A program made the translations under genes and the position numbers. Shown here one piece after another: positions 25,089 to 25,610 of a stretch of 31,449 nucleotides of DNA; position 1 is the stretch's first letter, and each line of letters begins with the position of its first letter. The DNA lies in the IMG/VR virus record IMGVR_UViG_2541047798_000008; one strand, given 5' to 3'. Source of the stretch: a virus (lineage: Duplodnaviria > Heunggongvirae > Uroviricota > Caudoviricetes). The notes beneath the pieces were generated by a model, which made no database searches, was not told the origin of the DNA, and worked only from the letters and a program-made list of their open reading frames with translations.

Positions 25089-25427
25089 ATGGAATTTAAA
25101 GATTTACCTCCTTCAATCCAGGAGATTGCAGCACACACACTTCGTCATCGTCTGAACGAACTTGAATTGGAATCGGTAACAAAAAAAGACACTGATAATA
25201 TGGCTCGTAATGTGCGCGATGCGTTTACTGGGCTGTTTTCAGATACAGCTTTAAATATCCATGGCACAGAGGATACAGCAAAACAATTTGCAGAAAAAGA
25301 AGTGGAAGATCCCAGTTCAAAGAGCCAGAAACAGCCAAACAACCATGAAATTAACGAACTGCTTCTGGCAACAGGCTTCATAAATATTAACGAATATGAA
25401 CGCCGTAAAAAAATGTTATCTGATTAA
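25089..25427 (+). CDS. Hypothetical protein (112 aa), ydfB/ydfC position
   Basis: ATG 25089 with GAGG 6 nt upstream. Confidence 0.45.
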   Translation: MEFKDLPPSIQEIAAHTLRHRLNELELESVTKKDTDNMARNVRDAFTGLFSDTALNIHGTEDTAKQFAEKEVEDPSSKSQKQPNNHEINELLLATGFININEYERRKKMLSD

Positions 25428-25610
25428 TCCATCAAGATATCTTTTTAGCATCAGCGTTTCTACGTTATTAAAACCATCAGATTTTAACATAGCTTCGATT
25501 CGCTGATTTAAATTGCCAACTAACTGTTGATACTGAGTAGATGGAAGCATGTGTACCAGCTCCTTGAGAACACAATAACATGCACCAAGTTTTAACTCCT
25601 GCTCTGACAT
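25416..25610 (-). CDS. Small protein (64 aa) encoded antisense to the dicB operon, convergent with the preceding gene
   Basis: ATG 25608-25610 preceded by GGAGGA (4-nt spacer). MSEQELKLGACYCVLKELVHMLPSTQYQQLVGNLNQRIEAMLKSDGFNNVETLMLKRYLDGLIR. Confidence 0.45.
   Translation of the reverse strand: MSEQELKLGACYCVLKELVHMLPSTQYQQLVGNLNQRIEAMLKSDGFNNVETLMLKRYLDGLIR

Follow-up and report, generated by a model that had tools for sequence, protein, structure and literature searches.

A minus-strand small gene behind a conserved structured leader in a Qin-like Escherichia coli prophage, with a possible distant likeness to IraP

The IMG/VR record IMGVR_UViG_2541047798_000008 is a 31,449-nt stretch of a lambdoid Qin-like Escherichia coli prophage, and it raises the question of what a small open reading frame (ORF) is doing on the minus strand of an operon whose other genes point the opposite way. 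The whole stretch is called the window, and coordinates are those of the window except where another locus is named. An earlier note on this DNA had described a 64-codon minus-strand ORF with a GGAGGA Shine-Dalgarno (SD) sequence between the ydfA-side genes and dicF, overlapping the 3' end of the preceding gene by 12 nt, and it offered two readings, a regulator of DicF/DicB expression or an independent small helical protein. The sequence and the ORF list confirm the description, with the overlap at 25416-25427. Tentatively, we favor the view that this is a moron-type accessory gene of the prophage, driven from a structured leader and encoding a product that resembles the core of IraP. The elements at issue are the following.

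25416..25610, minus strand: 64-residue coding sequence MSEQELKLGACYCVLKELVHMLPSTQYQQLVGNLNQRIEAMLKSDGFNNVETLMLKRYLDGLIR, stop included (ATG 25610-25608, TAA 25418-25416); product a predicted three-helix bundle with an IraP-like core.
25615..25620, minus strand: SD sequence GGAGGA, followed by the four-base spacer TAAA and the ATG; GGAG(G/A) in seven of seven divergent homologues.
25089..25427, plus strand: convergent partner gene of the MEFKDLP type, 112 or 116 residues depending on the start (25089 or 25077), 112 from the ATG at 25089.

Conservation marks the ORF as a genuine gene and not merely a frame that arose by chance. The ratio of nonsynonymous to synonymous substitution rates (dN/dS), calculated pairwise for five homologues of equal length, was 0.11-0.31 at synonymous divergences (dS) of up to 1.6. 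The start region reads ATGGAGGATAAA-ATG, and AATGGAG(G/A) followed by ATG is kept at all seven divergent homologous loci compared. The Prokaryotic Genome Annotation Pipeline (PGAP) calls exactly this frame in ATCC 25922 as the hypothetical protein WP_001295058.1, in a genome where a 451-bp region of the window is 100% identical. The protein matches PHROG 4987 over its full length (E=3e-49), and its exact sequence lies on at least 1000 contigs, labeled hypothetical every time. An AlphaFold2 model built from the 13-member family alignment is a three-helix bundle (helices 3-20, 24-43, and 49-63) with a predicted local distance difference test score (pLDDT) of 90.6. With the purifying selection, this model upholds the independent small helical protein of the earlier note. 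Two longer forms were considered and rejected: an 88-residue form with a GTG start, because that start is not conserved, and one from the in-frame ATG at 25622, which is out of frame in one homologue and missing from the type-B leaders described below. Neither alternative start being conserved, the 64-residue reading is taken as the real form.

The opposite explanation is that the ORF is a chance or decaying frame without a product. It is short, a consensus promoter and terminator were not found for it, and tblastn found no match to it in 50,697 sequenced phage records. Such a frame would not be expected to hold a dN/dS of 0.11-0.31, stay intact in four genera, keep its ribosome-binding site, or yield a confident fold from 13 sequences, and we regard this explanation as very improbable.

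The ORF is carried by 152 of 5426 complete E. coli genomes (~3%), at ≥99% identity in 149, and the carriers include the reference strain ATCC 25922 and O104:H4 isolates. Close family members are found in E. coli, Salmonella, Citrobacter, and one metagenome contig, and more distant members of 65-67 residues in Edwardsiella tarda and Salmonella. The loci used for comparison came from Citrobacter (L004), two kinds of Gifsy-like Salmonella prophage (L005-8 and L013-15), Edwardsiella (L010-12), and an E. coli-type prophage (L016). A conservation check on the ORF thus finds homologues in prophages of four genera, and at every locus examined the ORF lies in the early-left region, between integrase/exonuclease and repressor, opposing its neighbors. 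Its presence is polymorphic: the flanking segment with the promoter-like element and first hairpin described below occurs in 3528 of the 5426 genomes (~65%) and the full type-A leader in 923, against 152 for the ORF, which is absent from the Qin prophage of K-12. A scan of GTDB species representatives found no relatives, searches of NCBIfam and PADLOC gave no match, and no publication was found on the gene or its accession. What is already known is an annotated hypothetical protein, and the IraP label is an automatic name on two homologues only.

The ~90 nt before the ATG are conserved more strongly than the coding sequence in all contexts. This segment has the features of a structured leader preceded by a promoter-like element.

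25611..25697, minus strand: structured leader, a predicted 5' untranslated region of ~87 nt, common to many other small ORFs.
25674..25697, minus strand: P1, the 5'-terminal hairpin GCCGGA-(12-nt loop UUCUUAUCCGUG)-UCCGGC; its stem is invariant in all copies examined, K-12 Qin included (consensus CCGGA(U)-loop-UCCGG).
25647..25668, minus strand: P2, the second hairpin, lineage-dependent in sequence, with compensatory changes.
25616..25647, minus strand: P3, the SD-sequestering stem, formed between the anti-SD (U)CUCCAU(U), 25640-25647, and (A)AUGGAG(G), 25616-25623.
25704..25732, minus strand: promoter-like element, -35 TTTTCA (25732-25727), 17-nt spacer, -10 TAAACT (25709-25704), eight of 12 consensus matches.

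Covariation supports the fold. The consensus leader has three helices, with compensatory changes in 6 of the 8 P2 pairs. Of the leader cells, 94.5% are paired, compared to 22-40% when the partners are slid by 1-3 columns, and the observed covariation was reached by 0 of 500 shuffles. In P3, the CUCCAU:AUGGAG pairing is invariant in seven loci and type-B leaders have CUCCU:AGGAG, so a compensatory swap (AU in 14, UA in 4) preserves the SD stem in either leader subtype. When the window leader is folded to its minimum free energy, P3 spans 8 bp and covers GGAGG; the isolated hairpin has a free energy of -6.8 kcal/mol. The earlier note had called the SD strong. A GGAGGA is indeed present, but it is predicted to be base-paired inside this conserved stem. 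G·U pairs number eleven when the RNA is read in the sense of the ORF and one when it is read the other way, a bias that favors a leader function on the ORF strand, though this is also the strand from which the structure was derived. Rfam returned no family on the leader even at a permissive E-value, no feature is annotated under it in any of 12 sampled records, and the leader sequence was found in no paper.

Hexamers resembling a -10 box lie 6-9 nt before P1 in otherwise unrelated upstream DNA: TAAACT in the window and TAAAAT, TAGTAT, GATAAT, or TATAAC elsewhere. Their fixed distance from P1 points to a likely transcript start at the foot of P1, near 25697. Taking the coding and leader evidence together, it is highly probable, as far as sequence comparison can tell, that the ORF is an independently expressed cargo gene behind a functional leader. 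As a separate observation, a hairpin CCCUGA-CUUU-UCAGGG stands upstream of the -10-like box in many copies. It is imperfect in the window (25715-25732, minus strand; plus strand ccctgaaaagtcag), and on the operon strand it reads CCCUGAAAAGUCAGGG, loosely recalling lambda boxB.

We can now ask whether the ORF exists to regulate DicF, as the first of the two earlier readings held. The mature DicF small RNA (sRNA) lies at 25954-26005 on the plus strand (Rfam, 76.9 bits). A minus-strand transcript starting at about 25697 would run away from dicF and would not overlap it; the transcript it would oppose is the ydfA-side part of the operon. The pairing predicted between DicF and the leader or start region (-28.9 kcal/mol) does not exceed what random 121-nt pieces of the window give (mean -30.8 ± 5.6 kcal/mol). 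Furthermore, the same leader carries at least 13 unrelated ORFs, or none in Qin, so any interference is a property of the leader promoter and not of the protein. DicF regulation as the purpose of this ORF is thus not sustained. A convergent promoter could damp read-through into dicF and dicB on derepression, a minor possibility that is tied to the promoter rather than to the protein.

K-12 provides the natural comparison. The Qin prophage of MG1655 (locus L002) has a dicBF operon like that of the window, with a dicA/dicC-type switch, ydfA, a region upstream of dicF, DicF, dicB, and a DUF1482 gene, and its dicA, ydfA, ydfB, ydfC, dicF, dicB, and ydfD are all on one strand, the co-directional order that the earlier note had stated. 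Qin differs in having ydfB and ydfC in place of the MEFKDLP gene and the minus-strand ORF. Nucleotide homology between the window and Qin resumes at about 25666, past ydfB and ydfC. At this point (L002 ~2560-2660, minus strand; NC_000913.3 ~1649060-1649160), Qin keeps the promoter-like box, P1, and P2 and has neither SD nor ORF. Its P2 is CUCCAC/GUGGAG, compensatory with respect to other lineages, and the element continues into the 3' end of ydfC, antisense to it. By eye, without an alignment, ydfC resembles the N-terminal domain of a 178-residue two-domain gene in L016, which makes Qin look like a deletion derivative. Within the "long untranslated region" that precedes dicF in K-12 Qin, there is thus a remnant of the leader unit on the opposite strand.

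That Qin retains the promoter, P1, and P2 in the absence of the ORF suits a second explanation, in which the unit matters as an RNA or a transcription event, the leader promoter cuts read-through into dicF and dicB by collision or double-stranded RNA, and the ORF is incidental. The DicF sRNA is processed out of a longer polycistronic message, and expression of the operon is toxic (PMC5069750). The convergent orientation is held in all contexts, a DicF or DicF-like sRNA slot lies 260-395 nt upstream in four of seven of them, and without a terminator after the ORF, the minus-strand transcript would enter the partner gene antisense. However, purifying selection acts on the protein, and the conserved SD, ATG, and SD-pairing stem make sense only if the message is translated. 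The predicted transcript does not overlap DicF and the DicF pairing is at background. Interference would also be common to every copy of the leader, which leaves the conservation of this particular protein across four genera unexplained. We consider this RNA-centered explanation rather improbable.

Apart from this question, hairpin-plus-U-run elements stand at the dicF position on the strand opposite the ORF in L016 (~4600-4700), L010 (~4740-4830), and L005 (~3640-3740). They have in common UUUGGCG... and a GGCGG/CCGCC terminator, their internal sequences differ, and at its gathering score the Rfam DicF model misses them. Possibly, they represent variants of the DicF-slot sRNA that have other seeds.

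The leader is the common element of a family of cassettes with interchangeable cargo. A pattern scan of IMG/VR for the leader retrieved 120 stretches (L017-L136), and in 48 of these P1 is followed, 81-90 nt on, by a start codon with an SD. The ORFs they bear belong to at least 13 unrelated families of 57-101 residues. One cargo (MAKFTVRIELRD..., 94 residues) is GhoS-like at threshold (21.2 bits versus 21), two cargo families are zinc-ribbon-like by their Cys motifs, with sub-threshold Pfam matches for one of them, and the remainder fall in no known family. About 30 of the stretches are K-12-like orphans in which the leader runs directly into the ydfC antisense. Salmonella loci hold the leader twice, the second copy preceding a different small ORF with the same ATGGAGG(A/G)TAAAATG start, so tandem cassettes are possible (L005 4602-4896, L013 4476-4737).

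Cassettes of this type commonly face a second gene. A convergent gene with the motif M[EQ][FLI]K[DYNE]LP is found in 30 of 41 cargo units, and the motif is missing from the other 11. These partners are related; most start MEFKDLP and then continue variably. The window partner has a conserved N-terminal part of ~50 residues and a variable C-terminal part, and it matches five different PHROG families, in each case through the first ~50 residues only. A 119-residue Salmonella homologue is 56% identical to it over the full length (112 residues). In ATCC 25922 (L001 2790-2940), PGAP annotates no more of the partner than its first 151 bp, as an incomplete pseudogene. This call is probably a side effect of mosaicism, the sequence being consistent with an intact partner that has a mosaic C-terminus.

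Polymorphic effector/immunity systems combine a conserved N-terminus, a variable C-terminus, and a variable small gene beside them, and the partner and cargo are arranged in this way. The small protein could accordingly be a specific inhibitor, antidote, or regulator of the partner's variable C-terminal domain, which would be made on induction, with the overlapping 3' ends adding mutual antisense control. The C-terminal ~25 residues of the partner (LLLxAGFxxxxEY...) beside the IraP-like ORF are kept in E. coli, Salmonella, and the metagenome contig and are detectable in Edwardsiella; other cargo ORFs adjoin MEFKDLP genes with different C-termini. Sequenced phages match only the N-terminal half of the partner, and none of them has the small ORF. 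The confinement of all five PHROG matches to the N-terminal part and the occurrence of a partner-type gene in 30 of 41 units point the same way. In Citrobacter, however, the small ORF is intact while the partner is a remnant. The motif is missing from 11 of the 41 units, the 3' overlap amounts to just 4-33 nt across the contexts other than Citrobacter, and no toxin, defense, or known domain was detected in any convergent partner. Co-inheritance of ORF and partner can also be explained by recombination in the conserved flanks. On balance, the inhibitor explanation is unlikely.

The protein itself offers a different lead. IraP is a small anti-adaptor that binds RssB and thereby shields σS (RpoS) from ClpXP. 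The 64-residue protein resembles IraP (YaiB; PF10796; PDB 8gkv) in being small, all-helical, and enterobacterial. PF10796 is the top Pfam family for nine of the 13 members and the sole recurring family signal. One homologue, P0128 (Edwardsiella, 67 residues; E=2.6e-11 to the family), scores 24.5 bits on PF10796, above the gathering cut-off of 23.2 bits, and NCBI names both P0128 and the Citrobacter homologue IraP. A second homologue, P0006, reaches 24.2 bits only when a probably untranslated N-terminal extension is included. In the reverse direction, a hidden Markov model (HMM) of the family scored 92 IraPs at a median of 13.9 bits and a maximum of 17.8, compared to a maximum of 12.7 bits for 9200 shuffled IraPs, ≤2.9 bits for reversed IraPs, and ≤3.3 bits for 27 cargo proteins from sister cassettes.

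The alignment between the two families is gapless. hhalign places family residues 7-64 on IraP residues 25-82 (P = 7e-4 to 6e-3). In the AlphaFold2 model of E. coli IraP, whose pLDDT is a low 65, the helices span 4-14, 20-38, 42-58, and 67-82, and with the offset of +18, the three family helices fall on the last three of these. Residues that are invariant in both families align (A10/A28, L30/L48, Y58/Y76, and L62/L80), and the 64-residue family has the C-terminal IraP pattern (D/E)xx(L/F)xxY(V/L/I)xxL(L/I).

Several results weigh against the view of an expressed, IraP-like cargo gene. On PF10796 the window protein itself attains 14.4 bits (E=0.06), below the gathering cut-off, and on a narrow IraP HMM 4.6 bits (empirical P ~0.014), where another cargo family reaches 5.4 bits. 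The hhalign probability for the family against IraP is 6-27%. BLASTP against E. coli IraP gave no match, the family profile failed to reach IraP among 1.8 billion proteins, and a PDB sequence search with the family profile and P0128 returned weak matches to designed helical proteins only and not 8gkv. The family begins at the equivalent of IraP residue ~19 and has no counterpart of helix 4-14; residues 1-18, which include L9 and part of the predicted coiled coil, are missing. A mutation of L9 lowers IraP activity, and the predicted coiled coil (residues 1-35) has been proposed as the RssB contact (PMC4428439). On the expression side, no minus-strand sigma-70 promoter passes a strict scan at nine of 12 consensus matches, a minus-strand search past 25416 turned up nothing like a terminator, and P2 of the window leader is weakened by two A·A mismatches.

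These negative comparisons suit a further explanation: the product would be an accessory protein, small and helical but without kinship to IraP, that acts on something else, for example a protein of the host or of a phage concerned with superinfection or anti-defense, and the likeness would be chance between amphipathic helices. All direct comparisons of the window protein with IraP are weak, structure searches with the model gave generic helical matches only, and the N-terminal helix of IraP is missing. The sister cargo is diverse, mostly without a known family, one being GhoS-like. But the family HMM sets IraPs clearly apart from the shuffled, reversed, and other-cargo controls, one short homologue exceeds a curated Pfam cut-off, and the helix boundaries agree under a gapless alignment. 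For an anti-defense target in particular, the PADLOC library gave no match. Chance likeness is unlikely in our estimate, though it retains some weight. Between these lines of evidence, we put it at an even chance that the 64-residue family is a true homologue of IraP. Certainly, it falls short of a full IraP. With the N-terminal helix missing, a role in the RssB/σS pathway is uncertain, and on the sequence comparisons, action of the protein on RssB and σS is a doubtful proposition, although a serious one.

A relic of the missing IraP helix was sought in the longer forms from Citrobacter (103 residues) and the metagenome contig (91 residues) and rejected as chance. The extension gained ~4.5 bits in one form and none in the other, and on its own it scored 2 bits. 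In the window and Salmonella versions, the extension is out of frame or broken by a stop codon, and its DNA continues into sequence common to K-12, which has no ORF; the conserved DNA under the apparent extension is the leader. Separately, the other cargo family noted above on the narrow IraP HMM, MINAEQLEKEISELKKEL... (75 residues; L017, L029, and L125), scores slightly above the window protein, aligns to IraP 16-55, and has no Pfam match at E<=0.01. It could be a second IraP-like cargo or merely helical noise.

Known systems place the gene more closely. Mobile DNA can supply small proteins that inhibit RssB and stabilize σS: IraM on the e14 prophage of K-12 and IraL on the potB island of CFT073 (PMC4045071). 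The present protein differs from these, with no sequence relationship seen (Pfam gave PF10796 only) and a different gene context and regulation. It differs from IraP in having 64 instead of 86 residues, lacking the N-terminal helix with L9, and showing only ~12% identity; it is prophage-borne in all contexts, with another leader and promoter, whereas iraP of K-12 sits between ddlA and phoA. With the morons and lysogenic-conversion genes that lambdoid prophages carry, it has several traits in common: it is an additional gene in a minority of otherwise similar prophages, opposes the neighboring operon, has an apparent promoter of its own (the candidate with eight of 12 matches), and is placed so that expression is permitted while the early operon is repressed. 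Classical morons differ from it, since no terminator of its own was found and it belongs to a cassette family with one structured leader and a convergent partner gene. The leader in turn resembles SD-sequestering leaders, such as the ROSE and fourU RNA thermometers and lambda cIII mRNA, in which the ribosome-binding site is paired with an upstream complement in a modest stem, here with a compensatory swap. It differs from all of these by an extra invariant 5' hairpin with a conserved 12-nt loop, for which no known counterpart was identified. No literature was found on phage-borne IraP-type proteins or anti-adaptors, and the cassette and leader architecture appears undescribed.

The moron-type reading that we favor can be set out as a mechanism. 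Transcription would begin at the gene's own weak promoter, just before the 5'-terminal P1, and P1 may stabilize the mRNA. Pairing of CUCCAU with the AUGGAG of the ribosome-binding site in P3 would limit translation until the stem is opened; with the SD sequestered in this way, translation would be gated and not constitutive. DicA represses the dicBF operon under ordinary conditions (PMC5069750). In a lysogen, a DicA-type repressor would silence the opposing operon and the outward-facing gene could be expressed without head-on transcription, to which derepression of the operon would expose it. The product, as a distant relative of IraP ~19-82, would most likely bind RssB or another partner of the IraP core. 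If it bound RssB, the stability of σS and the stress tolerance of the lysogen would shift. The boldest form of this proposal is a widespread cassette system of enterobacterial lambdoid prophages, in which an outward-facing promoter and a three-hairpin leader with a gated ribosome-binding site express exchangeable small proteins against the early-left operon, each cargo is paired with a variable C-terminal domain of its partner, and the window cargo is an N-terminally shortened IraP-type anti-adaptor that reprograms σS. In that full form, it is improbable.

The remaining features of the region are listed here.

23362-23634, minus strand: YdaS/dicC-like gene.
23744-24145, plus strand: dicA-like repressor gene.
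24173-24651, plus strand: paaA2/parE toxin-antitoxin pair.
Ending at 25077, plus strand: ydfA/DUF1391.
26186-26374: dicB.
After dicB: DUF1482 gene, then a long exonuclease gene.

The toxin-antitoxin pair, a PaaA2-type antitoxin (63 residues) and a ParE-family toxin (95 residues), stands between the dicA-like gene and ydfA, where K-12 Qin has nothing. A strong terminator-like hairpin with a T-run directly follows parE (24668-24687, plus strand). Downstream of this hairpin (within 24668-24747, plus strand) and just upstream of ydfA is a 16-bp palindrome that holds the best sigma-70 match of the region, TTGACA-18-TAGATT, with 10 of 12 consensus matches. The match may mark a secondary promoter, or one under operator control, for the ydfA-dicF-dicB genes. 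Elsewhere in the window (12109-12699 and 16852-17026), Rfam matched AsxR (an anti-Stx2 sRNA) at threshold, STnc100, three tRNAs, and the sok antitoxin RNA, a set that is typical of late and accessory regions in Stx-type lambdoid prophages.

The leader occurs in ~65% of complete E. coli genomes and precedes at least 13 families of small proteins, and so it marks a hotspot of prophage accessory genes whose shared regulation can be studied once for all cargo families. If the action on RssB were true, the general stress response would be tuned by a prophage gene in ~3% of complete E. coli genomes, and a phage route would be added to the known anti-adaptor network, with the first IraP-family member on a phage. 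The protein would then be a natural truncation for testing which part of IraP is needed and whether the core alone inhibits RssB.

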